Below, in pieces: positions 3,212 to 40,547 of a stretch of 40,547 nt of DNA. The notes beneath the pieces are model-generated. The model saw only the letters and a program-made list of their open reading frames with translations, made no database searches and was not told the DNA's origin. A program made the translations under genes and the position numbers. This DNA is from a virus: the IMG/VR virus record IMGVR_UViG_3300045988_136392, positions 1-40,547 of that record; one strand, written 5' to 3'. The number at the start of each line of letters is the position of its first letter. The stretch's first letter is position 1.

Positions 3212-3337
3212 ATGGAGAACTATATTGGCGATAGTTGCGTGAAATCATCAACGCACTTGATAAACGCAGCTCAAACGCTGAAAACGCTCCTAATCTCGTC
3301 TGCGCTGGGAAGAGTTTGGGAAGAATCGGCTCCAAAA
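3212..3337 (+). pseudogene. N-terminal remnant of host XRE-S24 gene left at attL (MENYIGD... then phage-derived out-of-context sequence)
   Basis: ATGGAGAACTATATTGGCGA encodes MENYIGD, matching MNYIGD at 39752. After the 15-bp core the sequence diverges into phage DNA and stops after 42 codons. Confidence 0.5.
3217..3231. repeat. attL core (GAACTATATTGGCGA), putative
   Basis: Exact 15-bp direct repeat of 39754-39768, about 40 bp from the integrase stop codon. Confidence 0.65.
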
Positions 3338-4455
3338 CGCTGAATTTTAGCGGTTTCTGCCGCCAAATCGCGCTCGTGAATCCTTGCGTATATGTCCATC
3401 GTTGTCGTTATGTCGCTGTGCCTTGCCATCTGCTGAATAGCCTTGATGTTCATGTCGCTCATGCAGAGATACGAGACGAACCAGTGGCGCAGATCGTGGG
3501 GGCGCGGGTCATCGAAGCCAAGCTCGGAACCGAGCTTCTTCCATGCCCTGTTGAGCGTTGAGTACGATTCCTGCTCATATATAAGATTGGTCGATACGTA
3601 CGTTTCGGGCGTTTGCGTCAGTTGAAGCGCCTTCATGTTGTTTGCCTGCGTCACGCGCCACATAGCGAGCATATCGGCAAGCGTGTCTATCATCGGGAGC
3701 GTTGCGTTCGCCGCCTTGCTCTTCGTCCCCTTGATCGTTATGAAGCCGCCCTGAATGTCCTTCCATTGCACAGCCAACGCTTCGTTTGCTCGGCAACCAG
3801 CGAGCAGGGCGAGCAGCAGAGCCATACAACGAGGGTCTTGCTGATCGTATATGTCGTAAGCCAAACGCTCGAACTGCTTAACGCTTATGGCGTTGACCTC
3901 TCGCTGATCCTTCTTCACGCTTGAGTACCCTGCAAATGGGTTGCGGCTTGCGTAGCCTTTGGGGATCGCAAAGTGCGTCATCATGCCAGAGAGCGCAGAG
4001 CAGTATATGTTGATGGTGTTACCGCTGTAGCGCCTTCCGCTGAGCGTCTTCCCATCTATCCAGCCTTTGACCATATCGACAACGTGCTTGTCGGTGATCT
4101 GCGACACGGGCAAGGCTCCGATACAATGGCAGACCGCCTTAACGGCACATTGGCGGGAGTACCGCGCATTTTCGGAAAGCTGGTGGAACGGATCGGCGGT
4201 ATCAAGCCAAAGCTCGCAGCATTGGCTGAGCGTCATCTTCTTCGATTCTGCGTGGCTCATCCCGAGCAGCTTGCGCTTGAAATCCTCGCGAGCTTGAACG
4301 GCTTCGGTGTAGCTGCCGTGAAAGGTCATCGCCCTTTGGGCATACTTTCCCGTGGCAGGGTTGATTCCTACGCTTATCTTGATCTTCCATTTGCGGCATT
4401 TCGATTTAGGCTTGTCCTCCATCGCGTATATGCCGCCTATGCCCTTCGTTCTCAT
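3271..4455 (-). CDS. int: tyrosine integrase (phage integrase family)
   Basis: C-terminal catalytic region with R...HDLRH....ARHSDITTTMDIYARIH (R-H-R-Y catalytic signature of tyrosine recombinases). N-terminal SAM-like domain. Confidence 0.95.
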   Translation of the reverse strand: MRTKGIGGIYAMEDKPKSKCRKWKIKISVGINPATGKYAQRAMTFHGSYTEAVQAREDFKRKLLGMSHAESKKMTLSQCCELWLDTADPFHQLSENARYSRQCAVKAVCHCIGALPVSQITDKHVVDMVKGWIDGKTLSGRRYSGNTINIYCSALSGMMTHFAIPKGYASRNPFAGYSSVKKDQREVNAISVKQFERLAYDIYDQQDPRCMALLLALLAGCRANEALAVQWKDIQGGFITIKGTKSKAANATLPMIDTLADMLAMWRVTQANNMKALQLTQTPETYVSTNLIYEQESYSTLNRAWKKLGSELGFDDPRPHDLRHWFVSYLCMSDMNIKAIQQMARHSDITTTMDIYARIHERDLAAETAKIQRFGADSSQTLPSADEIRSVFSV

Positions 4456-5225: not shown

Positions 5226-5894
5226 TTATAACCGAACGACCGCGTACACGACCTTGCCGAGAATCCTGACCTCTGGCGAAGATTGGTCTGTGGCATCGAT
5301 GATCATCCGCTTGTGGGACGGATTGGTGCTGTCAGGCTCAAGCACGATGAATCCGTCCATCTTCTTTATGCGCTTGACGGTAGCGTCATCGCCGTTGACC
5401 TTCACCAGCGCAACATCCCCGCTTTGAGCGTCAACGTGCGTATCTATCAGGGCGTACGACCCATCGGTTAGGACGTTGTTCATCGAATCGCCCGTTATCT
5501 GGATGAAGTAGTTCCCCTTTTTGCAATACTCTTCTGGGCATGGGATCGACCCGCAGTCAAGCTCGAACGCTGGGCATGGCTCGCCAGCGTATGCGGCTCC
5601 GATGATGGGAAGCGAGCCAGAAGCGGCAATGGGCTTTATCTTGCCATCAAATCCAGCAAGGCGCGTTTTGGCGTAATATCCATCGGAGTATCCGAACAGA
5701 TCGTTCTCCGTGACGTTGAAAACGCTGCAAAGTTGCTCGATCGCGTCTTTGCTGTTCGGACTTGTTCCCCTGTTCTCCCAATGGGAAACGGTTGCAGTTG
5801 TTATATCGAGTGCAGCGGCTAGCCTTGCCTGCGTCATATTCCTATCTTCGCGAAGAGCGCGGAGGTTCTTCCCGAAGTTGCTGTTTCGTGCCAT
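5226..5894 (-). CDS. CI-like prophage repressor (XRE-HTH + S24 LexA-like peptidase)
   Basis: N-terminal HTH (QARLAAALDITTATVSHWENG). C-terminal S24 with Ser (ITGDSM) and Lys (ATVKRIKK) dyad. Start at internal ATG 5894 with RBS. The upstream part of the long ORF lies in an AT-rich promoter region. Confidence 0.9.
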   Translation of the reverse strand: MARNSNFGKNLRALREDRNMTQARLAAALDITTATVSHWENRGTSPNSKDAIEQLCSVFNVTENDLFGYSDGYYAKTRLAGFDGKIKPIAASGSLPIIGAAYAGEPCPAFELDCGSIPCPEEYCKKGNYFIQITGDSMNNVLTDGSYALIDTHVDAQSGDVALVKVNGDDATVKRIKKMDGFIVLEPDSTNPSHKRMIIDATDQSSPEVRILGKVVYAVVRL

Positions 5895-6038
5895 AGGGTG
5901 TCCTTTCTTTCGCCCTATATACATTTTAGTTTTTATAAAAAAGTTTTGCATAAACCAAAAATATATATTTACAAACTTAAATGTATAAAATAATATATAC
6001 ATCAACGAAAGGAACCCAACCGAAAGGCGGCAGCGAAG
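5895..6038. promoter_or_regulatory. AT-rich divergent promoter/operator region of the genetic switch with TATACAT half-sites
   Basis: Markedly AT-rich 144 bp between cI-like (-) and the rightward early genes. TATATACAT at 5916-5924 and ATATATACATC at 5994-6004 match the half-site of the 6275-6298 palindrome. Confidence 0.55.
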
Positions 6039-6260
6039 ATGATGAACGCAGATGACATCAAAAAGGGCATCGAGTGCATGAAGGCTCAGAAGAAGAGCCT
6101 TGAGGAAGAGATGATTGATCTTAAAACGCACCTGGTCAGGGGCATTTACGACATGGGAAGCGAGGAGCTTATCATGGTTGCAAACAGGATCGCATACCTT
6201 GAGAAGCGAATCGAAGCGGGACGGGCGAAGATCGATCTTGCTGAGCTTATCGTCCGCTGA
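6039..6260 (+). CDS. small early protein (73 aa), coiled-coil-like, unknown function
   Basis: ORF with RBS-like AAAGGCGG upstream. No HTH recognisable. Confidence 0.45.
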   Translation: MMNADDIKKGIECMKAQKKSLEEEMIDLKTHLVRGIYDMGSEELIMVANRIAYLEKRIEAGRAKIDLAELIVR

Positions 6261-6274
6261 TTTTTTTTGCACTC

Positions 6275-12726: not shown

Positions 12727-12902
12727 GGGTCTACAAGTGTGACAGGTGCGGGGAGTACGTCTCGCGAACGGTTAGGGATTTCTTCGTGCACAATCCGACG
12801 AGGGGGATTTACAAGCTGAGCAAGAATATACACCTTTGCAACGACTGCGCGAATAGCTTCCGCGAATGGTTCAGCGAGTGCAAGAAGGAGCAGAGAGAAT
12901 GA
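12723..12902 (+). CDS. small zinc-ribbon protein
   Basis: ATG 12723 inside the longer ORF. CDRCG...CNDC motif. Confidence 0.4.
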   Translation: MRVYKCDRCGEYVSRTVRDFFVHNPTRGIYKLSKNIHLCNDCANSFREWFSECKKEQRE

Positions 12903-13198
12903 GCGAGATCGAGCTGAAGCCATGCCCGTTCTGCGGGAGCGAGGACGTAACCTGCGCCGCTGGGCTAGAAGATGAGTACTACGTGGAGTGCTGGGATTGC
13001 AGCGCAAAAGTCGAGTCGTACAACGGGCTGGAAGACGCAGTAGCAGGCTGGAACACGCGAGCCATAGACCGCGATGAGCTTTTGAAGATCGCTGACGAGC
13101 TTGAGAACGAATTCTTCGTGGTCTACGACAGCTACGAAGAGATAGATGATCATGCGGATTGCTTCGTTGAGCGGATCATGAAGGCGATCGGCGAATGA
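12899..13198 (+). CDS. Lar-family restriction alleviation protein-like
   Basis: KPCPFCGS..V........YV.C..C......AWNTRA pattern typical of the Lar family. Confidence 0.6.
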   Translation: MSEIELKPCPFCGSEDVTCAAGLEDEYYVECWDCSAKVESYNGLEDAVAGWNTRAIDRDELLKIADELENEFFVVYDSYEEIDDHADCFVERIMKAIGE

Positions 13199-16338: not shown

Positions 16339-17748
16339 GTGGCAAGCGAAGAAGTAGACTACACGGTTCCGTTGCATGTTCGGAAGTACCTTACGAGCCT
16401 AGGGTATGAGCTGTGCGATGGCGTTATGACCGACCTTATAGACCAATGGCGGGACTGCTACGCTTCCCGTGGCGAGTTTTACGACTACTGTGACAAGGAC
16501 AGCATGGGGCATACCCTCAAGGTTCACCGCCGATCCTGCAAGCCTGCGAAGAGGGTATGCAAGGAATGGGCGGCGCTGATGTTCAGCGACCCTATCACCG
16601 TCTCATGCGATGACGAAGTCTGCAACGCATGGCTTTCCGATTACCTTGAGCGCATCAACTTCTTCGGAAACGGAAAGCAGCTTGTGCAGGATGCCTTCGC
16701 CCTCGGCACTGGTGCTTGGGCGCTCTGGCTCGACCTCACGGCGCAGAAGATGCAGGTTCGCCGATACAAGGCGAAGCAGGTTCTGCCGCTTACGTGGGAC
16801 GATGACGGCGTTACGGAATGCGCGTTCACGAGCCGTGTTGCAATCGGCGGCAAGGTGCTCGATCAGGTGCAGTTGCACGTTTGCGAGCCTGACGGATACC
16901 ACATCAAGACGGTTCTCTTCGACCGAAAAACTGAGAAGCGCGTAGCCGTTGATGGCGTGGTCGATGACCTCTCCACCGGATGCGAAACGCCAACGTTCGC
17001 GCTTGTGAAGCCTGCGATCGCCAACACCTTCGTAGACATCACGCCTTACGGGCAGAGCGTTTTCGCCGATTCGATCGATGAGGTTCATGCGGTCGATCTT
17101 TGCTTCGATGCGATCTTCAACGAGGTCGATCTTGCTAAGCTCCGTATCTTCATCGATGACATGCTCATCGATGTGCAGGACAAGGACGGAAACCGCCAGG
17201 CTATCCCGTTCGGCAAGAACGACAACACGGTTTACCGCAAGGTCAGCGGCGTTGGCGATGGTCAGCCTATCGTCCCCTTTGCCCCGCAGATGCGAACCGA
17301 GCAGCAGGTCAGCGCGTACCGCCTGGCGATCCAGAAGCTCGGCGATGACTGCGGTTTCGGGAAGAAGTATTTCGACATCGATGCGGCAGGCGGCATGAAA
17401 ACCGCTCAGGAAGTCGTTTCCGACAACGCCGACCTGATGCGAAACATCAGAAGCCACGAGCGTTTAATGCAGGGAGCAATCGCCGACATCTGCCGCGCAT
17501 TGTGCCATTGCGCAACGAGGTTCCTCGGCGCTGGTCTGGGCGATCCTGGCACCATTACGGTCAACTGGGACGATTCTGTGATTGTCGATACGCAGGCTGA
17601 GAAGGCGCAGGATCAGAGCGAGCTTAACGTAACGCTGAATCCTTGGGAGTACCGCAGGAAATGGTACGGCGAGAGCGAGGAGGAAGCGAAGGCTAACGTT
17701 CCTGGCGCTATCGCAGAGGACGATTACGCGAGCTTCGGTGAGCAGTAA
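16339..17748 (+). CDS. portal protein
   Basis: 469-aa protein directly after TerL and before the MuF-like gene. Size and position typical of SPP1-type portals. Confidence 0.7.
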   Translation: MASEEVDYTVPLHVRKYLTSLGYELCDGVMTDLIDQWRDCYASRGEFYDYCDKDSMGHTLKVHRRSCKPAKRVCKEWAALMFSDPITVSCDDEVCNAWLSDYLERINFFGNGKQLVQDAFALGTGAWALWLDLTAQKMQVRRYKAKQVLPLTWDDDGVTECAFTSRVAIGGKVLDQVQLHVCEPDGYHIKTVLFDRKTEKRVAVDGVVDDLSTGCETPTFALVKPAIANTFVDITPYGQSVFADSIDEVHAVDLCFDAIFNEVDLAKLRIFIDDMLIDVQDKDGNRQAIPFGKNDNTVYRKVSGVGDGQPIVPFAPQMRTEQQVSAYRLAIQKLGDDCGFGKKYFDIDAAGGMKTAQEVVSDNADLMRNIRSHERLMQGAIADICRALCHCATRFLGAGLGDPGTITVNWDDSVIVDTQAEKAQDQSELNVTLNPWEYRRKWYGESEEEAKANVPGAIAEDDYASFGEQ

Positions 17749-19343
17749 TGCTTGACGAGGAGAAGGACGCTAGCGCCGAATCGGAGGACGCTCTAAGCGA
17801 TATGGAGCTTGCGATGCTCATCGCCACTGCTTCCGCCTTGCTTTCCGCTCCGATAGCGCACAAGGCTATCAGGAAGAGCGGGAGGGCGCTTCTCGCGAAG
17901 TTGCAGCAGATAGCGGGGGCGAACCGAGAAGCCGTCAACGAAGCCATCGAGCACGACTTCCGAGGTAGCTTCATACGCAACTGGCTTGCAGATATAGAGG
18001 ACGCTGGGAAGGCTACGCCGAAGGGGATAGCAAGCGCGGCGCAACGTGCTCAGATGCGAGCGAGGAACCCTGCAAGGACGGTTATGAAATACGCAGGCAA
18101 GCTGTCGCAGCAGATGGCGCAGAGCGCCTACATGGAGTATCTAAAGATAGCTTCGGAAGCGGCATTTGCGTCAACGGGCAACATCGATGATCCAGGCGTG
18201 GGGTACGAACGGGCGCTGTCGGCAGGAATCGCGAAGATGGCGCGTAAAGGCTTGACGGCTTCGACCTACACGCGCAGGGACGGGACGGTTGTTCATGTTC
18301 CCGTTGACGTTGGGATCAGGAGGGCGATTGCGGCAGAGGGACGCGAGCCGAAGATCAAGGCAACGCTCGATGCGGCTGACAGCTCGTTCGGCTTGGTCGA
18401 GGTCAGCAAGACGGCTAACCCCCGCGACACGCACCACCGCTGGGAGGGGCGAGTTTACTCCACGGGCGCTAGCACCGCAGGCTTCCCGAGCTTCGAGGAG
18501 GTCGTAGGCGATCAGATAAACGACTACAACTGCGGTCACCGCATCCGCGTTTTCAACCCGAACATTGGGCGGCGGTTCTCCGATCCGCTTGAGGGTACGG
18601 GATACACGGCTGAGGAATCGGCGGCGCTGCACACCGAGCAGGCTAAGCTTGAGAACGATATTCGAAAGCTAAAGCGCGAGCATGAGGTGCTTCACAGCAT
18701 GAAGCTCGATACCGAGGACGTTAACCGCCGACTGAAGTACAAGCGCAGCGAGCTGCAATACCTGCTGAGCAGGCATCCGAAGATTCTAAGCCGCCGCGAA
18801 TGGCGCGAGTACACATACGAGACGGCAAGGCGCAGGCTCGGACTTTACGGAAAAGTGCATATTGACGAGGATAAGCGGCTTGAGGTTCAGCTCGCCGATT
18901 CAAAGCGGTGGGAGGAAACAAGGAGCAGGCTTAACGCCAACAAACAGGCGTGGGTCGATTACAAGGCTCGAACGATGGACGAGGAGAAGCTTTCCATCAG
19001 AGCAGGAGCGCAGCGTAAGCACATCAAGGGAACCAGGGAATACGAGCAGCACATAGACGTTTCCAACAGGAAGGGGTTCCCCGAGCCGAGCCGAATAACG
19101 GTGAGCATCGAGGAAGCCGAAGAGTTGGTGCGCAAGTACGCTGGCAAGGGTACAATGAAAACGAAGCGTTCTGGCGGATGGAACGGCACGGAGATTTGCG
19201 CAGCCAACAAGGTAGTAGGGTTTGTCGTTCGCAAGGACGGAACGGAAGTCCCAACGCGCCTTTTTAAGATTCACTACAGCAAGACGGGAACGCACATCGT
19301 TCCGTATGCAAAGGATGGGAAGCCATGGAATGGCAAGAGCTAA
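17748..19343 (+). CDS. head morphogenesis protein (Mu F / SPP1 gp7 family) with long C-terminal extension
   Basis: MuF core ...NPRDTHHRWEGRVYS....DYNCGHRIRVFNP... within the first about 270 aa. About 260 extra residues follow: a coiled-coil and then a basic C-terminal domain of about 100 aa. Confidence 0.8.
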   Translation: MLDEEKDASAESEDALSDMELAMLIATASALLSAPIAHKAIRKSGRALLAKLQQIAGANREAVNEAIEHDFRGSFIRNWLADIEDAGKATPKGIASAAQRAQMRARNPARTVMKYAGKLSQQMAQSAYMEYLKIASEAAFASTGNIDDPGVGYERALSAGIAKMARKGLTASTYTRRDGTVVHVPVDVGIRRAIAAEGREPKIKATLDAADSSFGLVEVSKTANPRDTHHRWEGRVYSTGASTAGFPSFEEVVGDQINDYNCGHRIRVFNPNIGRRFSDPLEGTGYTAEESAALHTEQAKLENDIRKLKREHEVLHSMKLDTEDVNRRLKYKRSELQYLLSRHPKILSRREWREYTYETARRRLGLYGKVHIDEDKRLEVQLADSKRWEETRSRLNANKQAWVDYKARTMDEEKLSIRAGAQRKHIKGTREYEQHIDVSNRKGFPEPSRITVSIEEAEELVRKYAGKGTMKTKRSGGWNGTEICAANKVVGFVVRKDGTEVPTRLFKIHYSKTGTHIVPYAKDGKPWNGKS

Positions 19344-29338: not shown

Positions 29339-30447
29339 TCGACATGAACAAGGGAGGTCGAACGACCTCCTGGCGCTTCGTCCGCGTTCGGCGCGTGCTT
29401 GGCTGGAAGTCGGAAGCCTACGAGGACAACGCCTACGAGGAAGTGGGAACCGTAAGCGGCATCACGTCATGCCGAATCGAAGAAGCACAGCTTACGAGCC
29501 TTAAGGTTTCTGGCTCGATCGAATATGTTGACATGCCCGACCTTGGGGATGATCTTCTCCGCGTATACGCCGACATGGAGCTTGACGGCGAGGTTGAATC
29601 CAAATGCTACGGTACTTTCTTCGTTTACTCGAAGAGCGAGGAGATTTGCGAAGGCTCGCACGTGGGAACCGCCGACCTTTACAGCGTCCTTGTGCTGCTT
29701 GAGCAGCGCCTGCTTGAGGGCAATTACTCTGTAGGGGCGGCGTACACGGCTAATTACCTCCCCGTTGTCTCTGAGATGGTCTACGAGGTCGGCTTGCCGC
29801 TGATGCTCACACCAGGCGGCTGGGAGGTTGCAGCAATAAAGACATGGGAGGTCGGAACCTCCTTTCTAGAGATGGCGAACGACATCATGGAGCTTTACGG
29901 ATACGGCTCGCTCAACGTTGACGTTTGGGGGAACGTGATAGCGAAGCCTTACCAAGACCCTGAGACAGCTGTTGCGACCACGGTTTTCAGCGACACCGAA
30001 GAGGACGTTTCGGACGAGACGATCAAACGCGAATGGGACGTTCACGACACGCCAAACGTTGTGGTTGTGCGCTCCAAGCTCAAAGACGATTCAGAGGTAA
30101 TCGGATCGGCTGAGAACGCCGATCCGAACAACCCGTACAGCACGGCGGCGCGTGGGATGCGCATCGTGCGGTTCGAGGAGGTTGAGGGGCTTGAGACGAA
30201 GGCGCAATGCCAGGAGAAGGCTAAGGCGCTGCTGATCGAGGGGATGCAATCAATCGAGCGCCTTACGATCGGTCACGCAGGCAAGCGGTTCAACGCAGGA
30301 GATACCGTTGCAGTTGACTACCAGCGAAGCGGTTTGATCGGGAAATACAGCGCATACAAGCGCAGCGTGAAGGCAACCCCCGACACCGAGAGCGAGACAA
30401 CGATGAGAAGGACGGTGAAGCTTTATGGCAACGTGGCGAAATCCTGA
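29335..30447 (+). CDS. tail-associated/baseplate hub protein (Tal-like)
   Basis: ATGA-coupled to Dit. About 370 aa. Canonical position. Confidence 0.5.
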   Translation: MIDMNKGGRTTSWRFVRVRRVLGWKSEAYEDNAYEEVGTVSGITSCRIEEAQLTSLKVSGSIEYVDMPDLGDDLLRVYADMELDGEVESKCYGTFFVYSKSEEICEGSHVGTADLYSVLVLLEQRLLEGNYSVGAAYTANYLPVVSEMVYEVGLPLMLTPGGWEVAAIKTWEVGTSFLEMANDIMELYGYGSLNVDVWGNVIAKPYQDPETAVATTVFSDTEEDVSDETIKREWDVHDTPNVVVVRSKLKDDSEVIGSAENADPNNPYSTAARGMRIVRFEEVEGLETKAQCQEKAKALLIEGMQSIERLTIGHAGKRFNAGDTVAVDYQRSGLIGKYSAYKRSVKATPDTESETTMRRTVKLYGNVAKS

Positions 30448-30679
30448 TCAGCTCATAAAGGCGGTAGCCGATGCGCTAAAGCCTTTCTTGCGCAGGAATT
30501 ACTGCAAGATCACCACTGGCAAGGTTACGGATACGTTCGATGACGGAACGGCTTCGGTGACGGTGAACGGAAGCTCGCTTATGGCGGTTCGGTGCTGCTC
30601 TTGCGCAAAGGGGAACGTGGTTCTGATCGTCTCGCAGGCAAGCAACCATTACGTCATCGGCGTAAGGCAGGCATCATGA
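30425..30679 (+). CDS. small tail-module protein (84 aa)
   Basis: Coupled ORF. Unknown. Confidence 0.35.
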   Translation: MATWRNPDQLIKAVADALKPFLRRNYCKITTGKVTDTFDDGTASVTVNGSSLMAVRCCSCAKGNVVLIVSQASNHYVIGVRQAS

Positions 30680-32385: not shown

Positions 32386-33381
32386 ATGGCATCATTCGCA
32401 TATAAAGATTACCTGAACTGGTGGTACAAGTACGCCGACAGCAACAAGACCAGCGGCGGATCGCAGTTCCGCGTGACGGCCATGCTCAACGTGAAGGAGT
32501 TCGAGGATGGCCGCATGAAGGCGTACGTCAAGGCAACCCTCGTTGTGCTGTCGAACAACTTCGAGGGCGCCAACTGCAACTACGCGCTGACGGTAAACGG
32601 GGAAACCAAGAAGAGCGGGTCTGAGAAGATTTACGCGGCAGGGGACATGCACACGTTCGCCGACAACCTCGACCTTGGATGGTTCGGCAGCGGAACCGAG
32701 ATAAGCATCAGCCTGCGATGCTGGTACACGGGTGGAAGCGGTACCACGTACCAGGCAACGGCATCGTTCAGCAAGGTTGCGAAGGGGTACGACGACTTCA
32801 TGCCGCCAGCGTTCACGGCTGTGATTGGCTCCGCAAGCATTACAGGCAACGTTGAGATGAAGCCAGGCGGCGGTTCTGTGCTCGTCACGGTTCCGCTTTG
32901 CACCGCCGCTCAATGGACTACGCCTGTTGCGCAGCTCGGACAAACATACCGTCCTACGAGCCTGATCATCGACTGTCTTGGAAACTCCCTCGCAAGCAGC
33001 AATACGACTGCGGCTACGTTGAACCTTGACCCAAAGAAGAAGCTCGCCGAGCTGTACGCAGCGAATGGGGGATACGAGGGGTACAGGGATGCAATAAACG
33101 AAGTATTCCCAAACACGCAGTTCGTGCGCGATGTCCCGAAGGGAACGATGGCGCTTGCCCTTCGCCAATATTTCAGCTACGGGAACGATGAGGTTGGGTA
33201 CCTAGGACGCAGCAGGTCTTACTACGTGCTGCTGAACGTGCTCTCAGGGAGCATTGCGGCTTACCCAGAGGACGGATCACCCAGGGAGGCAACCGTATAC
33301 GCGTACGACTCGAGCGGAAGCCTCCAAGAGTGCGAGGTTTACGTGTACGGCGAGGACGGAGCGCCGATCCAGGTGCAGTAG
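32386..33381 (+). CDS. receptor-binding protein candidate
   Basis: Last gene of the tail module after the BppU-like gene. No recognisable enzymatic motif. Confidence 0.45.
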   Translation: MASFAYKDYLNWWYKYADSNKTSGGSQFRVTAMLNVKEFEDGRMKAYVKATLVVLSNNFEGANCNYALTVNGETKKSGSEKIYAAGDMHTFADNLDLGWFGSGTEISISLRCWYTGGSGTTYQATASFSKVAKGYDDFMPPAFTAVIGSASITGNVEMKPGGGSVLVTVPLCTAAQWTTPVAQLGQTYRPTSLIIDCLGNSLASSNTTAATLNLDPKKKLAELYAANGGYEGYRDAINEVFPNTQFVRDVPKGTMALALRQYFSYGNDEVGYLGRSRSYYVLLNVLSGSIAAYPEDGSPREATVYAYDSSGSLQECEVYVYGEDGAPIQVQ

Positions 33382-33605
33382 GACCGAGGCCGTTTGCCGA
33401 TTTGATTGCAACCCAAAAGTTATAAAGCGGTAATAAAACGAAATACAGGCTGGTCATGCTCTATTTTTATAAGCATGGAAATGGAGTACGAAAGACGATT
33501 GCCGAGGCAGTTGATGCGCGGACGGAAGCGAACGTGCAGGCAGCCTAGGTGCGCGCCTACCCACCAGTAAAAGAAAGGGAAACCAAGAAAGTTAGGGGAA
33601 GGGAA

Positions 33606-34274
33606 ATGGTGCGCATTCTGATAGTCGAAGACGATGTGGTTCATGCACGAGAGATAGAGCGTGCGTTGGATGACATAGGGATAAGGCATCTGCATGCAAG
33701 GTGCGCTGAGGAAGCGATAAGGCTGGCAAGGCAGCACCGTATAAATATGTACGTGATAGACATCGATTTGCCTGGTGTAAGCGGATTCACGTTCGCGCAG
33801 GTGGTTAGAGACCATACGAACGCACCAGTGATATTCATGGGCGACATCGATAACGAAGCCCAGAAGGCAATAGGCTTCGAGATCGGAGGAGACGACTTCC
33901 TGGTGAAGCCTTTCGGAATGCTTGAGCTTTCATGCCGCATAAGGGCTATCCTGCGCAGATGCGAGATCAAGCGATATAGTGCCAGTAACGCGTTTAAGCT
34001 GAACCGAGACGATCATACGGTGGAAATCGATGGCAGAAAGATAAGGCTGACGAAACTCGAGTTCGACCTGATGTTCCAGCTCGTTATGGCGAACGGGGCG
34101 ACGGTAAGCAAGCAGACGCTCATTCGCGAGGTGTGGGGAGGAGATTCCATGGCAACCAACGAGGTGCTAAAAGCTCGCATGCATTCCTTGAAACCCAAGG
34201 TTGGCGTGGATCGCATCAAAGCCGTGTACGGCGATGGATACCGCATCATTACCAAATCATCACCGGTTGTGTAA
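33606..34274 (+). CDS. OmpR-family response regulator (REC + winged-helix), orphan
   Basis: REC: MVRILIVEDD..., acceptor Asp in YVIDIDLPGVSG, FLVKPF lysine. C-terminal Trans_reg_C: LTKLEFDLMFQLVMANGATVSKQTLIREVWG...GYRI. Strong RBS. Own terminator. ATA/AGG/AGA-rich codon usage unlike neighbouring genes. Confidence 0.85.
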   Translation: MVRILIVEDDVVHAREIERALDDIGIRHLHARCAEEAIRLARQHRINMYVIDIDLPGVSGFTFAQVVRDHTNAPVIFMGDIDNEAQKAIGFEIGGDDFLVKPFGMLELSCRIRAILRRCEIKRYSASNAFKLNRDDHTVEIDGRKIRLTKLEFDLMFQLVMANGATVSKQTLIREVWGGDSMATNEVLKARMHSLKPKVGVDRIKAVYGDGYRIITKSSPVV

Positions 34275-34315
34275 CCATTGCTTCAAGCGAAAAAACGAAT
34301 ATCTGAACTAACCAG

Positions 34316-34349
34316 GCAAGCCGCCCATCGGGGCGGCTTTCTTCGTTTT
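34316..34349 (+). terminator. Rho-independent terminator after the response regulator
   Basis: CAAGCCGCCC-ATCG-GGGCGGCTT plus T-run. Confidence 0.75.
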
Positions 34350-34359
34350 AGGAGCAGAT

Positions 34360-34840
34360 ATGTTCAACGGATACCAGCCATCGTTCCCAATGCCGTACCA
34401 GATGCCTCAGATGCAGCAACCGCCGCAGCAGGGCATCCAGTTTGTGAACGGCATCGAGTCAGCGCAGATGTACCAGCTGCCGCCGAACAGCCAGCAGATC
34501 CTCATGGACAGGAACCAGGCGCGGTTCTACATGGTGGAAACCGACGCAAGCGGGCAGAAGTCAGTGTCGGCGTACGACTTCCAGGCTGTAGCCGATGCTC
34601 CTACGGAGTACGCCACGAAGGACGACCTAAGGAGCTTGCATGAATCCGTTACTGAGCAGATCAAACGCGCAGTCGAGGCAGCAGCGCCCCGACCTGATGG
34701 GGTTCATCAGCCAAACGAATCCGCAGCAGGCCAGGCGGCAGGTGGAGCAGATGCTTCAAGACGGGCGAATCACGCAAGACCAGTTATCCCAGCTGTTTGA
34801 CCAGGCGAGGCAGATAGGGAAGAGCCTTGGGCTTAAGTAG
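34360..34840 (+). CDS. hypothetical Q/P-rich protein, apparently split into two frames (34360.. and 34640..34840)
   Basis: Two overlapping ORFs. Removing one base near the GCGCCCCGAC run (about 34688-34697) would fuse them. Confidence 0.35.
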
Positions 34841-34895
34841 CCACCTAACTCGCGAGAGGTGATTTATATGCAAATCTTAGAAGAAGGAGCACGAA

Positions 34896-35528
34896 ATGGA
34901 GACTTCTACCCCTAGCCTTTCGGACATCGCGGCGGTGACGAAGGACAACGACTTCGGCGGCGGAACCTGGATTTGGGTTATCGTCTTGTTTCTGTTCATG
35001 TGGGGCAACGGATGGAACCGCAACACGGGCAACGGCACCGAACCCGTCACCGAGGCGGGGCTTTGCAATGCCATGAACTTCAACAACCTCGAGAACGCCG
35101 TCGGTCGCATGAGCGACCAGCAGGCCGCAATCGCGCGCCAGACCGACAACGGAATCTGTAACCTCGGATACGAGAACCTGCGCAACTTCGCGCAGACCCA
35201 GCAGACCATCCAGAACGGCGACTACGCGCTCGCCCAGCAGATGTCCGATTGCTGCTGCAAGACCAACCGCAACATCGACGACCTGAAGTACAACGCTTCC
35301 ATGAATACGGCAGCCATCAACGAGAACACCACCGCTCAGGTGCAGAAGGTTCTCGACGCTATCTGCCAAGGCAAGATCGAGGCGCTTCAGGCTCAGGTAA
35401 GCCAGCTACAAATGCAGAACGCACTCTGTGGCGTGGTTCGATATCCAAGCGCAACAACCTACAACGCTGGCTTCAACCCGTACTTCAATGGCGCAGCCTG
35501 CGGTTGCGGAACCTCGTTTGCGGCGTAG
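34896..35528 (+). CDS. hypothetical membrane-anchored Cys-rich protein
   Basis: AGGAGCAC RBS. One N-terminal TM (WIWVIVLFLFMWG). Multiple Cys (CCC, GCGC). Confidence 0.5.
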   Translation: METSTPSLSDIAAVTKDNDFGGGTWIWVIVLFLFMWGNGWNRNTGNGTEPVTEAGLCNAMNFNNLENAVGRMSDQQAAIARQTDNGICNLGYENLRNFAQTQQTIQNGDYALAQQMSDCCCKTNRNIDDLKYNASMNTAAINENTTAQVQKVLDAICQGKIEALQAQVSQLQMQNALCGVVRYPSATTYNAGFNPYFNGAACGCGTSFAA

Positions 35529-35537
35529 GTGATCGCG

Positions 35538-35957
35538 ATGGGTTGCAAGATCGCACGCTTTATCTATGACAGCGACACAGCTCAGGCAGTGGCGGCTGGG
35601 CAGAACATCCTGTTCAGCAACGTTGTTAGCAAGACAAGGTCGATTCAGGGAAACGGTTCTGGTGGAATCCAGCTCAAAACGCCTGGGACATACCGTGTCA
35701 TCTCGAGCTTCACCATCGATGCAACGGCTGCTGGCGCTGTGAGCGTTCAGATGAGCAAGAACAACGTTGCGGCAACGGGAGGAAGGGCGGGTGCCACTAT
35801 GGCGGCTGCCGGAGACATTGCCACGTTGTCTATCGTCGATTACGTGACCGTTCTCCCTGGGGCGAGCGGGTCGTACGCAACTCTGACGTTCTCCCCCGAC
35901 TCTGGGGTTGGCGTTAGGACGGCAAGCGTGCTCGTCGAGAAAGCATGCTCCTGTTAG
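35538..35957 (+). CDS. hypothetical protein, possibly a C1q/BclA-C-like beta-sandwich
   Basis: AGGTGA RBS. Alternating hydrophobic beta-strand pattern. Confidence 0.4.
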   Translation: MGCKIARFIYDSDTAQAVAAGQNILFSNVVSKTRSIQGNGSGGIQLKTPGTYRVISSFTIDATAAGAVSVQMSKNNVAATGGRAGATMAAAGDIATLSIVDYVTVLPGASGSYATLTFSPDSGVGVRTASVLVEKACSC

Positions 35958-35960
35958 TAC

Positions 35961-36000
35961 GCAAGGCGCATCCCCTCAAGGCGGATGCGCCTTTTTCTTT
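35961..36000 (+). terminator. Rho-independent terminator
   Basis: GCGCATCCCCTCAAGGCGGATGCGC plus T-run. Confidence 0.75.
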
Positions 36001-36015
36001 GCACTGCGACACGAG
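36001..36015 (+). promoter_or_regulatory. conserved late-operon element, copy 3 (GCACTGCGACACGAG)
   Basis: Same CTGCGACACG core directly after a terminator, 43 bp before the holin start. Confidence 0.5.
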
Positions 36016-36057
36016 GCGAAGATTTCGCTGTATGCAATTAAGGCGAGGAGAGATTGT

Positions 36058-36414
36058 ATGGATTGTTTCTTTACAGAGGAGCAGCAATGGGTGATCTGGA
36101 TCACTGCCTCATTTGTGGTCCTCGACGTTGTGAGCGGAGTCATGAAGGCGGCTAAAGCGGGCGAACTGTCAAGCTCAAAGATGAGAGAGGGCCTTTGGCA
36201 CAAGTCTGGATACGTGCTGATCGTATGCCTTGCTGTGCTTATTGAGGTTGGGAGCCAGCATGTCAACATTGGGTTCGAGATGCCACTTATACTCCCTGCC
36301 TGCCTCTACATCATAGGCAGCGAGGTCATGTCAATCTACGAGAACGCGAAGGCGATAAACCCCGACCTTAACGATTCGAAGCTTTCCCAGTATTTCGAGA
36401 AGAAGGAGCAGTGA
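36058..36414 (+). CDS. holin
   Basis: Small protein with 3 TM segments and ..LDVVSGVMKAAKAGELSSSKMREGLWHK.. resembling the phage_holin_4_1 family. Directly upstream of the endolysin. Confidence 0.8.
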   Translation: MDCFFTEEQQWVIWITASFVVLDVVSGVMKAAKAGELSSSKMREGLWHKSGYVLIVCLAVLIEVGSQHVNIGFEMPLILPACLYIIGSEVMSIYENAKAINPDLNDSKLSQYFEKKEQ

Positions 36415-36531
36415 TGGGCGATTACGAGGTTGACACTTCAACAGTGGAAGAGCTTGCGGCGATGCCGAGCGAGACGGTTACGGACGAGGAGATTCCAGAT
36501 CAGACGGCTGAGGTGCTGGAAGGGAGAGAAG

Positions 36532-37388: not shown

Positions 37389-39341
37389 ATGAGAACGCAC
37401 ACAATCAAGGTACGCGGCCGCCGCGCCTCGATCGACGACCGCATGCTCGTTCAGGGCACCGTGGGCGAGGACGTGTTGGCGCTCGACTTGGACGAGGAGT
37501 GGGACGGCCTTGTGGTCACCGTAGCCTTCAAGTGGCAGCATGACTCCTCCATAGTCGCCAAGCAGGTTGAGGGCGGCTATGAGGTTCCATGGGAGTGCAA
37601 CCAGCAACCAGGCAAGGTACTCATTGCAGTCGAGGGAACCAAGGACGGCAAGGTGATGCGCCACGCGACCATCGGCCATCCCATGGTGGTGCTGCCGTCC
37701 GAGGAGGCATCGGGCACCTCCCCGACGGACCCCACGGTGAGCGAGTACCGCAAGGTGTACGAGGACGTGAAGCTGGCAACCGCCACCGCCAACGGGGCCG
37801 CCGACGATGCCAAGGAGGCTGCGGAGGATGCCCTCGTTGCGGCAGGCAACGCGGACGCTCAGGCCGCAGCCGCGCAGCTTGCATCGCAGGTAGCCGCCAA
37901 CGCCGCCGCCGACGTGAAGCGCCGCGCCGACTCGGGCGAGTTCAAGGGGGAGAAGGGCGACAAGGGCGACCCTGGCGAGCAGGGCATCCAGGGAATCCAA
38001 GGCGTTCCTGGGGCGCAAGGCGACCCAGGGGAGAAGGGCGATCCTGGCCCAAAGCTCACCTTCGCCGACCTGACGGAAGCCGACAAGTCTGAGCTTCAGA
38101 AGCCAGCCGCCGACGCGGCTGCAACGGCAAACGCTGCGGCGAAGGCGGCAAACGATGCGGCAGACGCGGCGAACACGGCTGCGGAAGCGGCCGTCTCCGA
38201 CGCGCAGGCCGCAATCGCCGAGGTCAAGGCAACCGAAGCCAAGCTGTACCCTGCGGCGGAGAACATCCTAGTCGGGAGCGAGACTGGAACGGTCGCGCAT
38301 GTGGAGGACGCTTTCTCTGGTGCGGCTCTGCGAAAAATCACGGTCGAGGGAGCTTGCAAGCAAGACGGAATCCCAAGCCCCGAATCGCCTAAGCCAATCA
38401 CGGTGATTGAGCATCCTGCCGTGAAGGTTGTGGGTCGAAACCTGTGGCCATTTGCTAGCTCTTATACGTCCATCGAGGGGCATCAGAACGAGTTCGTGAA
38501 TGACAAAACGCCACTCACGATTCTTCCTGGCACATACACGTTCCAGGCTGTCGGCTCGCTCGGGAACACGGATGCGCCGCTTTTCGGATACACGGCTACG
38601 GGCAAGCGCATCCAGCTCTTTCGAATCTTTCGTAATGTCAAAAACCCGAAATACAGCTTTACCGTCACGGAGCCTATCACCTCGGTTTACTTCGTATCGA
38701 ACGCGGCAGACTCCAACACAGGAACCATTTCCAGCATTCAGCTAGAGCGCAATTCAACCGCGACGGAATACAAGCCTCACACCTCCCAAACGCTAACCTT
38801 CGCACTCCCCGCAGAGCATCCCTACTTGGCCAAGCTCCCCGACGGCACGGCGGACGAAATCACGGTGGACAGAGACGGCAACGTCGAGCTTGTGACGCGG
38901 GTTGAGCGAGTGCTACCGAGTGATTATCGCAAGTTAGATTTCGGCGACGGTGGCGATGGTTCAGCGTATGTGTCGCTTAGACTTAATCATGCCAGCATAA
39001 TAGCAAACAGTCTTATGTGCAGCTCATATACGCCTAGCAACCCCACAATCAAAAGCGGGTTCATCTACACACCAAACTATACGAACATAGTGATTCGCGA
39101 CGACCGATTCACATCGAAAGATAAGGCAATCGAATTGTTGGATGGTGTAGTCGTGTATACCGCGGTGGAGCCGACGCGTTACCCCTTAGGAAAAATCGAG
39201 ATGCCAAAGGCGCAAGACAGCATCGTCAACACCTGGACTGACGCGGAAGTCACGCCGAACACAGGAATCAAGTACGTGCGCGACGTGAACATCGTCGTCG
39301 CGAACATCGAAAAGGCAATCGCATCCATCACCGAAGGTTAG
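37389..39341 (+). CDS. tail-fibre-like protein with collagen (G-X-Y) repeats and lower-GC C-terminal globular domain, located downstream of the lysis cassette
   Basis: GEKGDKGDPGEQGIQGIQGVPGAQGDPGEKGDPGP collagen run. Ala-rich coiled coil. N-terminal domain resembles BppU-type N-domains. Visible GC drop after about 38300. Confidence 0.7.
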   Translation: MRTHTIKVRGRRASIDDRMLVQGTVGEDVLALDLDEEWDGLVVTVAFKWQHDSSIVAKQVEGGYEVPWECNQQPGKVLIAVEGTKDGKVMRHATIGHPMVVLPSEEASGTSPTDPTVSEYRKVYEDVKLATATANGAADDAKEAAEDALVAAGNADAQAAAAQLASQVAANAAADVKRRADSGEFKGEKGDKGDPGEQGIQGIQGVPGAQGDPGEKGDPGPKLTFADLTEADKSELQKPAADAAATANAAAKAANDAADAANTAAEAAVSDAQAAIAEVKATEAKLYPAAENILVGSETGTVAHVEDAFSGAALRKITVEGACKQDGIPSPESPKPITVIEHPAVKVVGRNLWPFASSYTSIEGHQNEFVNDKTPLTILPGTYTFQAVGSLGNTDAPLFGYTATGKRIQLFRIFRNVKNPKYSFTVTEPITSVYFVSNAADSNTGTISSIQLERNSTATEYKPHTSQTLTFALPAEHPYLAKLPDGTADEITVDRDGNVELVTRVERVLPSDYRKLDFGDGGDGSAYVSLRLNHASIIANSLMCSSYTPSNPTIKSGFIYTPNYTNIVIRDDRFTSKDKAIELLDGVVVYTAVEPTRYPLGKIEMPKAQDSIVNTWTDAEVTPNTGIKYVRDVNIVVANIEKAIASITEG

Positions 39342-39751: not shown

Positions 39752-40417
39752 TTGAACTATATTGGCGACAACATTCATGCAATTCGCGGTAACTTCGGTT
39801 TGTCGCAAGAGCAGCTTGCAGCGATAGCGGAAGTGAGCCAGACTTCCGTCTCCGCCTGGGAATGCGGGCAGACTATCCCGCGTTTTTCCAATGCCGTGAA
39901 GATAGTTGAATCTTTGCCTAGCCTGACTATGGACGATGTGTATAGCCAGGTGCTTGGGTACGCGCGCAGGGTATTGCAGCAAGCGCATCCAGAGTCTGGA
40001 TCGTCGTTCGGATTTGTTCCCTTGTATGGATCTATTGCTGCGGGTGCTCCCATCGAGATGCTTCAGATCGAGGAAATCCATCCTGTGCCCAATGCGCTGT
40101 TGCTGCGTTATCCGAAAGCGTTTTATTTGCGCGTTAAGGGCGAATCTATGAATAGGGTCCTGCCCAACGGCAGCTATGCATTGGTTTGTCCCACTTCGGA
40201 AGTTGTAGACGGATCTGTGTATGCGGTAAGCGTTGGTTCATCGAATGCGACGGTGAAGCGGGTGCGAAAACTAAATAACGGAATTGCCCTAGAACCTGAT
40301 TCGAATGACCCCACCTATAAGTCTCAGGTATTTGATTACGGAGATGGGGAACGTGAAACCCTGTCTGTTATTGGCAGAGTCGTGTGGTTTTGTGTGCCTT
40401 ACGACTATGAGATTTAG
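39752..40417 (+). CDS. XRE-HTH + S24 peptidase (LexA/CI-like) regulator; host-side att target gene with phage-supplied 5' end
   Basis: HTH (LSQEQLAAIAEVSQTSVSAWECG). S24 Ser/Lys (VKGESM, ATVKRVRK). TTG start with an AGGTGA RBS lying in phage-derived sequence. Paralogous to the prophage CI (5226-5894). Confidence 0.8.
   Translation: MNYIGDNIHAIRGNFGLSQEQLAAIAEVSQTSVSAWECGQTIPRFSNAVKIVESLPSLTMDDVYSQVLGYARRVLQQAHPESGSSFGFVPLYGSIAAGAPIEMLQIEEIHPVPNALLLRYPKAFYLRVKGESMNRVLPNGSYALVCPTSEVVDGSVYAVSVGSSNATVKRVRKLNNGIALEPDSNDPTYKSQVFDYGDGERETLSVIGRVVWFCVPYDYEI
39754..39768. repeat. attR core (GAACTATATTGGCGA), putative
   Basis: Exact copy of 3217-3231. Forms codons 2-6 of the downstream XRE-S24 gene. 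Confidence 0.65.
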
Positions 40418-40467: not shown

Positions 40468-40547
40468 ATAATACTTTCTTGCGCGCGGACGTGGCTCAGC
40501 TGGTAGAGCACAACCTTGCCAAGGTTGGGGTCGCGGGTTCGAACCCC
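40468..40547. repeat. 80-bp exact direct repeat, copy 2 (identical to 1-80)
   Basis: Directly visible. Truncated by the window end. Confidence 0.9.
40485..40547 (+). tRNA. tRNA-Gly (GCC) second copy, 5' 63 nt only (truncated by window end)
   Basis: Identical to positions 18-80. Confidence 0.7.

Follow-up and report, generated by a model that had tools for sequence, protein, structure and literature searches.

A kinase-less OmpR/PhoB-family response regulator and its conserved downstream gene block in an Eggerthellaceae prophage

The subject of this analysis is a response regulator gene carried by IMG/VR virus record IMGVR_UViG_3300045988_136392. The window is the whole of that stretch of DNA, 40,547 nucleotides long, and it holds a temperate siphophage integrated in the chromosome of a member of the Eggerthellaceae, a family with few studied phages. 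The gene encodes a protein of the OmpR/PhoB family and lies downstream of the late genes of the phage. A small conserved open reading frame (ORF) precedes it, two arrays of short direct repeats, sites U and D, lie at its two ends, and a hairpin and a block of four small genes, g146, g66, g210 and g142, follow on the same strand (Table 1). The reading that we favour, with a probability of roughly 50%, is that the regulator is a kinase-independent, autoregulated factor that controls this adjacent phage block.

The regulator, its relatives and its receiver

An initial annotation of the window, made from the letters alone, had described a complete regulator with a receiver (REC) domain and a winged helix at 33606-34274, and had proposed profile searches with hidden Markov models to confirm the domains and find the closest chromosomal relative. 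The domains are borne out by Pfam and NCBIfam profiles. Pfam Response_reg matches residues 4-111 (2e-18; 67 bits against a cut-off of 30.2) and Trans_reg_C matches residues 143-214 (2.9e-12; 46.9 bits against a cut-off of 26.2). Many NCBIfam models of the OmpR family align with the protein end to end, all of them under their equivalog cut-offs, the best being CreB with 124 bits against a cut-off of 273; the protein therefore belongs to the OmpR family and not to a named orthologous group such as PhoB, PmrA or CreB. The nearest solved structure by sequence is BasR/PmrA (PDB 8jo2 and 4s04), with a full-length alignment and an E value of about 8e-27. PHROGs assigns the protein to phrog_731, labelled 'unknown function' (6.6e-47), and existing public records list the protein as 'response regulator transcription factor [Eggerthellaceae bacterium]' or 'PhoP'.

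A protein search with the regulator returned about 25 clusters at 50-99% identity, every one from gut metagenomes; below this clade, identity falls to 35% or less, the level of generic OmpR-type proteins. No clade member occurs in 185,579 species-representative genomes, where the best chromosomal regulator reaches 36% identity. Searching the proteins of deposited phages gave only generic OmpR matches of about 30% identity, many of them in contaminated records, and a search of the phage collection for DNA of near identity turned up nothing related. The clade is represented on six IMG/VR viral contigs and some 23 contigs from metagenomes, integrated prophages included, in surroundings of 42-64% GC. 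Full-length regulator ORFs are found in at least 11 lineages at 50-65% identity, with 54 invariant columns spread over both domains, and the alpha4-beta5-alpha5 motif GxDD(Y/F)(L/I)VKPF...R.RA.LRR is invariant in the clade. The recognition helix reads KARMHSLKPK in the window and KERMRNLRKK in relatives, with two positions noted as different. Deviating forms exist as well: a shortened regulator of 191 amino acids in L010, and the proteins P0014, P0017 and P0019 from metagenome contigs, in which the receiver runs into out-of-frame sequence or into the C-terminal portion of g210 and which are either natural deletion variants or assembly chimeras.

The receiver of the window protein keeps the acidic pair (Asp9, Asp10), the acceptor Asp52 and Lys101. 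At the position of the conserved Thr/Ser it has Gly79, within PVIFMGD, followed by Asp80 at T+1, so that the replacement of the switch residue next to a retained Asp and Lys, as first annotated, is correct. All lineages that retain Asp52 have Gly at the switch position and Asp or Glu at T+1. In the L002/L081 sub-lineage position 52 is Ser and position 9 is Arg or Ser, and one residue of the acidic pocket is thus gone; loss of the acceptor Asp is limited to this sub-lineage, with Asp52 retained in the window and in most lineages. A complete five-residue active site is present in no member of the clade.

The initial annotation had also reported that the window encodes no histidine kinase, and Pfam scans of about 30 window ORFs as well as a four-motif scan of all window ORFs of at least 150 amino acids likewise found none; with ordinary OmpR-type regulators as a control, the same four motifs picked out a kinase at 76 of 79 loci. 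Across 26 clade loci a kinase-like ORF occurs in two, each time more than 9 kb away in the host flank, and a linked kinase in none. An adjacent kinase in homologous phages, which the annotation had named as the sign of a simple gene loss, was accordingly not found in the clade. OmpR-type regulators of three deposited phages do have such a neighbour: Bacillus phage proCM3 gp61 and Mycobacterium prophage prophiGD05-1 gp76 each adjoin a gene annotated as a histidine kinase, and the PhoP-like protein of Stenotrophomonas phage Bhz63 adjoins a hypothetical protein assigned to the PRK11100 sensor-kinase superfamily. The kinase-less state is therefore a feature of this clade. Like the regulator of the window, these three are uncharacterised OmpR-type proteins of temperate phages, encoded near the genome ends or in the late region; they are only about 30% identical to it. 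Given the atypical receiver, with Gly in place of Thr and with the Asp lost in L002/L081, it is plausible that the regulator acts independently of a kinase.

Phages also carry a second lineage of atypical OmpR-type regulators, an abundant one, which was seen in passing. More than 70 viral contigs (L082-L155), about 50 kb long and of low GC, encode a different protein of 232 amino acids (for example L084, 9821-10519) with Gly at the position of the acceptor Asp and Arg at that of the conserved Lys.

The downstream block and the elements flanking the regulator

Homologues of g146, g66, g210 and g142 come after the regulator in all relatives, with the exception of L006, which keeps only a shortened start of g146 together with g142 and has lost g210. 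Different clade loci have different tail-fibre genes and different families of holin and endolysin, and in L328 an integrase adjoins the regulator upstream, yet g146 still lies directly downstream. In at least 11 lineages a conserved phage module, set in varying upstream contexts, has the regulator as its first long gene. The earlier description of the gene as standing alone, as a self-contained unit, does not hold, since the same four-gene block follows it in relatives and a small ORF lies upstream.

The block itself is far more widespread than the regulator. The g210 family comprises 2,495 protein clusters and was found at 109 viral loci of 28-62% GC, most of them without the regulator; g210 is usually preceded by g146 (at loci including L236-L314). 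Among the 77 viral g210 loci with enough upstream sequence, the regulator is present in 6, a small helix-turn-helix (HTH) gene in 54 and neither in 17. The HTH gene is of the sigma-r4/GerE type, encodes 66-84 amino acids and lies directly upstream of the block on the same strand. The regulator thus sits where most block-bearing phages have an HTH gene, and this is the main argument for the adjacent block, rather than the host, as its target.

OmpR/PhoB winged helices typically bind direct repeats spaced by 11 bp, or one helical turn. Site U consists of two 5-bp half-sites at this distance and lies 27-28 nt 5' of a -10 box in all but one of the 12 tabulated loci. In relatives it reads GTCAT-N6-GTCAC, GTCAC-N6-GGCAC, GCCAC-N6-GGCAC, GTCAT-N6-GGCAC, GCAAT-N6-GGCAC or GGCAC-N6-GACAC; the site of L002, GTCAT-ATTTTG-GTCAC, is Pho-box-like. 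Site D has three half-sites, spaced by 11 and 12 bp in all lineages, and its distance to a conserved (C/T)AT anchor on its 3' side is 24 nt (25 in one lineage). The stop codon of the regulator floats between -13 and -51 relative to the same anchor and the spacers between the half-sites vary, so that site D cannot be ascribed to coding constraint. Three further lineages, L325, L326 and L328, were fetched once the repeat rules had been defined and serve as an out-of-sample check. Small ORF, -10 spacing and site D are present in all three, the half-sites of site D being GTGAC three times in L328, GTAAC/GTGAC/GTGAC in L325 and GTCCC/GTGAC/GTTCC in L326; a canonical site U lies exactly 28 nt from the -10 box in two of them, and L325 has divergent GTTNA repeats. 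Moreover, the type of half-site co-varies between the two arrays, being GTWAT-like at both in the window and GKCAY-like at both in most other lineages. These features suggest that the regulator binds both sites.

Within the window the pattern GTDAY-N6-GTDAY has three matches against 0.81 expected, namely site U (the sole match on the + strand), site D and a repeat at 30498. The last of these (GTGAT-N6-GTAAT on the - strand, 30498-30513) shares its two half-sites with site D. The small ORF that contains it begins at 30426 and is situated between a tail-associated gene and the baseplate genes; the match may be due to chance, about 0.08 exact matches being expected by estimate.

At the junction with g146, the hairpin has a predicted minimum free energy (MFE) of -29.8 kcal/mol (z = -4.9). 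A hairpin is found in every lineage, and its U-tract is weak or absent in the high-GC lineages L326 and L328. The hexamer to which the (C/T)AT anchor belongs is complementary to bases 1-6 of g146, and the pairs change together across lineages (GAACAT:ATGTTC, AAACAT:ATGTTT and CAGCAT:ATGCTG); such compensatory changes support an outer stem that encloses the hairpin. The initial annotation had given the regulator its own terminator, and with a hairpin and a U-rich run this is plausible in the window; it fits less well with relatives of high GC, which have little or no U-tract, and with a stem that engages the start codon of g146, the hairpin being also part of the structured 5' region of that gene. 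A search of 33000-36500 against Rfam gave no family, its sole match being a sub-threshold ryfA on the hairpin. The conserved hexamer had been considered as a -10 box and was dropped from that role, because it has no conserved final T and co-varies with the start codon of g146. Since an RNA anti-start element accounts for it better, control from site D could be exerted on a promoter, as a roadblock or through termination. A candidate antisense promoter mirrored from site D was likewise set aside, no consistent -10 being seen by eye.

The region 5' of the regulator had been annotated as 220 bp of AT-rich, non-coding DNA. It measures 224 bp, is AT-rich only in relative terms (48.7% GC) and contains a conserved ORF of 31 codons. 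The core of the encoded peptide, LPKQLMRGRKR(T/A)CRQPR(C/A)V, is kept across lineages through synonymous changes, including switches between the Arg codon families. Pairwise codon differences number 357 synonymous and 121 non-synonymous in its frame, against 58/410 and 23/445 in the other frames; a synonymous excess in that frame only indicates that the small ORF is selected at the peptide level. Matches to a back-translated pattern of the small ORF are confined to regulator-bearing viral contigs. Its start codon is ATA, not ATG, in L166, and in the L165-168 group the ORF is degenerate.

No Shine-Dalgarno sequence lies ahead of the ATG of the small ORF, and a TAnnnT hexamer is found 6-7 nt before its start position in 12 of 12 tabulated loci; on these grounds a leaderless mRNA is predicted. 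A strict scan for the two sigma-70 hexamers returned no promoter in the region. In most relatives the small ORF ends in a run of prolines (VPPPP or VPTPP) encoded by a poly-C tract. The tract is 7-14 C long, differs between otherwise near-identical contigs from different samples, and by its length shifts the stop codon of the small ORF from 35 nt 5' of the regulator's ATG to a position that overlaps this ATG. The variation, seen at L002, L003, L081, L172-L176, L010, L077, L079, L159-L164, L174 and L175, could be slipped-strand hypervariability or an error of homopolymer assembly. In L326 the stop of the small ORF overlaps the regulator start as ATGA; in L006 the small ORF is fused in frame to the regulator as an N-terminal extension that contains RAPP.

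The predicted leader fold of the window, a single-sequence MFE structure, encloses C-rich segments that pair with the G-rich Shine-Dalgarno sequence of the regulator at 33595-33603. Taken over 33475-33625, the leader has an MFE of -45 kcal/mol (z = -2.6), and 3 of 200 shuffled sequences fold equally well. Pairing of the poly-C tract with the Shine-Dalgarno sequence appears in the MFE folds of most relatives.

Of the block proteins, g146 has a core modelled by AlphaFold with a pLDDT of about 88; a fold search gave no match in the PDB, and only uncharacterised phage proteins match it. Its 3' part is overlapped by g66 over some 160 nt in another frame; relatives conserve the two frames alike. We considered whether a +1 or -1 frameshift might join g146 and g66 and rejected the idea, since g66 has an AGGAG and an ATG of its own. 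The g210 protein is 43-89% identical across phages and has invariant cysteines (C57, CCC at 119-121 and C178); no Pfam family matches it, and its structure model, with a pLDDT of 45, is unusable. A second terminator-like hairpin lies 3' of g142, at 35978-35993.

Table 1. Features of the regulator locus and of the lysogeny module (positions in the window; aa, amino acids)
Feature	Position	Strand	Description
Site U	33419-33434	+	GTTAT-aaagcg-GTAAT, two 5-bp half-sites 11 bp apart (centre to centre), preceded by AAAAG; candidate site of the regulator
-10-like hexamer	33462-33467	+	TATTTT, 7 nt 5' of the ATG of the small ORF
Small ORF	33475-33570	+	31 aa, basic, two Cys; MEMEYERRLPRQLMRGRKRTCRQPRCAPTHQ; conserved leader ORF or small protein
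Predicted leader RNA structure	33548-33617	+	pairing of 33548-33557 (3' codons of the small ORF) with 33608-33617 (regulator start region)
Response regulator	33606-34274	+	OmpR/PhoB family, 222 aa; receiver with Gly for the switch Thr and Asp at T+1, C-terminal winged helix
Site D	34248-34275	-	+ strand ATTAC-N6-ATCAC-N7-GTAAC; three half-sites, over the last codons and stop codon of the regulator
Anti-start element	34297-34305	+	GAATAT / ATATCTG; pairs with 34354-34365 in the MFE fold
G+C-rich hairpin and U-rich run	34318-34349	+	hairpin 34318-34339, then UUUCUUCGUUUU; terminator-like in the window
g146	34360-34800	+	first gene of the block; Q/P-rich N-terminus and small beta domain
g66	34640-34840	+	66-aa ORF with strong Shine-Dalgarno sequence; phrog_22984
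g210	34896-35528	+	membrane-anchored (N-terminal), helical, Cys-rich; very large, highly conserved phage family
g142	35529-35957	+	last gene of the block; weak BclA_C-like match
Integrase	3271-4455	-	lysogeny module
cI-like repressor (S24/HTH)	5226-6272	-	lysogeny module

Models of regulation

In the reading that we favour, transcription would start at the ATG of the small ORF and yield a leaderless transcript, from a promoter made up of the -10 box and site U 27-28 nt upstream of it. The same mRNA would be translated for the regulator, whose ribosome-binding site is predicted to be masked by the 3' part of the small ORF, so that translation of the two would be coupled, in relatives by way of the Pro-rich, poly-C-encoded tail. 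The regulator would dimerise or oligomerise without a cognate kinase and bind both site U, which would amount to autoregulation, and site D. Binding at site D would control the g146-g210 block, the start codon of g146 being otherwise sequestered by the anti-start stem; the direction of this regulation, like the binding, is a prediction.

Several observations weigh against this reading. The arrays could be bound by another protein, for example an OmpR-family regulator of the host; site D has the opposite orientation to site U, no convincing -10 box was seen downstream of it, and in L002/L081 the half-site types differ between U and D. The small ORF of the window has neither a poly-C tract nor a Pro-Pro motif and ends in ...PRCAPTHQ. 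RNAalifold found no consensus structure for the leader, and the pairing of poly-C tract and Shine-Dalgarno sequence, resting as it does on single-sequence folds, is weakly supported. The 77 g210 loci are not phylogenetically independent, and the candidate target block consists of uncharacterised gene families. ATA-rich codon usage like that of the integrase and the cI-like repressor would also suit expression in the lysogen.

This codon usage deserves a closer look, as the initial annotation had held that it sets the regulator apart from all neighbouring genes. The gene has 51.6% GC against about 57-59% in the flanking late genes, and ATA accounts for 11 of its 22 Ile codons as opposed to 64 of 511 in the other genes (Fisher p = 4e-5). 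The lower GC and the abundance of ATA thus stand; the proposed enrichment of AGA and AGG is not significant (p = 0.13), and the difference from all neighbours does not exist, for the integrase (ATA 12/25) and the cI-like repressor (9/22) have the same ATA-rich, lower-GC profile, and the GC of the holin is as low as the regulator's. The ATA bias is also kept in relatives whose genes have 37-62% GC. A bias that is family-wide and common to integrase and repressor is a trait of the gene class or family and no mark of recent import, and recent horizontal import was rejected as its cause.

In its family traits the regulator resembles OmpR/PhoB proteins, among them BasR/PmrA as the nearest: it has a receiver and a winged helix, the acidic pair, the Asp and the Lys, and the alpha4-beta5-alpha5 motif, and the candidate sites of the clade are 11-bp direct repeats, one of them by its own promoter, which would give autoregulation. 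It departs from them in having no linked kinase at any clade locus and in its Gly for Thr with an acidic T+1 residue. HP1043, ChxR and the actinomycete GlnR, and aspartate-less receivers in general, are orphan regulators with degenerate receivers, presumed to be constitutively active dimers that bind direct repeats independently of phosphorylation. Unlike these, most members of the clade keep the Asp and lose the Thr.

The absence of a linked kinase from all 26 loci also bears on a phosphorylation-dependent relay, in which a histidine kinase of the host, or acetyl phosphate, would link a host signal to the module and set, for instance, lysis timing or induction. Asp9/Asp10, Asp52 and Lys101 are conserved in most lineages, as is the motif of the dimerisation face, and Pho-box-like repeats hint at cross-talk with host systems of the PhoP/PhoB type. 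Such a relay is nonetheless improbable: every lineage that keeps Asp52 has a switch Gly and an acidic T+1 residue, and L002/L081, with Ser for Asp52, has the same module and the same cis-elements. The same oddities of the active site, together with the truncated and fused metagenome variants (the L010 form and the P0014/P0017/P0019 type), might be seen in a decaying, hitch-hiking remnant of a captured two-component system that has lost its kinase. We regard this as highly improbable, because the full-length ORFs, with their invariant columns, are conserved across the lineages at the identities given above, the flanking cis-elements are conserved with them, and the small ORF is under purifying selection.

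Hendrix and colleagues reportedly described morons as units of promoter, gene and terminator inserted between the late genes of temperate phages, and the initial annotation suggested that the regulator could be a conversion gene of this kind that rewires the host. It would then be expressed in the lysogen from its own promoter, bounded by its own hairpin, and act mainly on host promoters, in envelope or stress regulons or in the control of superinfection, its linkage to the block being only positional. The predicted promoter and the terminator-like hairpin, a terminator that in most relatives separates the unit from the tail operon, the patchy presence of the regulator among phages with g146-g210 (6 of 77 g210 loci) and a GC content and ATA usage as in integrase and repressor all agree with such a factor. 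The genomic context gives it no support, however, and it appears unlikely. The regulator always lies directly upstream of the same block, even beside an integrase, and holds a position that in most block-bearing phages without a response regulator is taken by the small HTH gene; the conserved repeat arrays, as putative operators, flank the gene itself, and the half-site pattern matches only three times in the window. Hosts of 42-64% GC would, moreover, be hard to reconcile with one conserved host regulon. A host-directed factor for lysogenic conversion is therefore less likely than a phage-internal regulator.

A more elaborate version of phage-internal control is conceivable. Leader ORFs that encode arrest peptides provide the comparison, namely SecM, MifM and the RAPP-type ApdA/ApdP (PMC7897499, PMC10951233) and poly-Pro/RAPP arrest peptides (PMC12992588, PMC10951233, PMC7897499), and a mechanism of the small ORF akin to the poly-Pro/RAPP type is offered as a lead. 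The likeness lies in a small conserved ORF directly 5' of the regulated gene, in the Pro-rich C-terminus of relatives (VPPPP/VPTPP, and RAPP in the fused L006 protein) and in a downstream ribosome-binding site predicted to pair with the codons of the arrest site. There are differences too: the small ORF of the window ends in CAPTHQ and the motif of relatives is poly-Pro, not RAPP, the mRNA of the small ORF is predicted to be leaderless, and no tie to protein-localisation genes exists. In this version a leaderless leader of the arrest type would gate a kinase-independent factor that turns on the g146-g210 module, and the Pro codons would double as an anti-Shine-Dalgarno sequence within a hypermutable tract of 7-14 C. 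Such a novel switch is quite unlikely; if it were real, it would tie a phage function to the translational state of the host (proline, EF-P) or to phase variation.

Phage regulators of the two-component type are catalogued (phrog_731), and apparently none has been studied; in the literature no characterised phage regulator of the OmpR type was found, in keeping with the remark of the initial annotation that phage-borne orphan response regulators are rarely characterised. The clade offers a compact, testable system, with a kinase-less regulator, an altered switch, two predicted operator arrays, a leader ORF and a candidate target, and under the favoured reading it would show a receiver domain at work without a kinase. 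The g146-g210 block, with about 2,500 protein clusters, is among the larger uncharacterised gene families of human-gut phages. As most of the block copies examined are preceded by a small HTH gene, the role of the regulator would provide a handle on a widespread phage function.

The prophage and its surroundings

The host genes on the left side of the window are tRNA-Gly, tRNA-Cys and an SDF symporter (cluster name Eggerthella/Senegalimassilia/Eggerthellaceae). The early genes of the prophage include RecT, SSB, DnaC-like and ParB-like proteins, and the late genes a terminase, a portal, a tape measure and a BppU-type baseplate protein. After these follow the regulator, the four small genes, a holin (Phage_holin_4_1), an endolysin (CHAP/PG_binding), a collagen-like gene and a LexA-like gene. 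A 15-bp direct repeat, GAACTATATTGGCGA, lies at 3217-3231, beyond the integrase, and at 39754-39768, at the start of the LexA-like gene, and is likely to represent attL and attR. The prophage, of about 36.5 kb, appears to be inserted in the 5' end of the LexA-like gene and to provide that gene with a new TTG start. Bases 1-80 of the window are the same as 40468-40547 and contain the 5' part of tRNA-Gly(GCC) with 17 nt upstream of it; the identical ends could stem from two flanking tRNA-Gly copies or from the way in which the window or contig was cut.

In prophages of Gram-positive bacteria, conversion genes classically lie between the lysin and attR. The initial annotation had taken the place of the regulator, between the tail fibre genes and the lysis cassette, for the classic one; in this prophage the slot between lysin and attR is occupied by a collagen-like gene (37389-39341), not by the regulator. 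The encoded collagen-repeat protein has 650 amino acids and is 64% identical in a copy of the viral genome (UViG) that is otherwise 98-100% identical. Two other genes stand out among the remainder. A homologue of minor capsid protein 2 at 17748-19343 has a 'bacterial toxin 50' domain at its C-terminus (Ntox50, 6.4e-24) and is richer in ATA codons than is usual for a late gene, and the early region encodes a Lar-like restriction-alleviation protein at 12866-13198 (9.4e-12).

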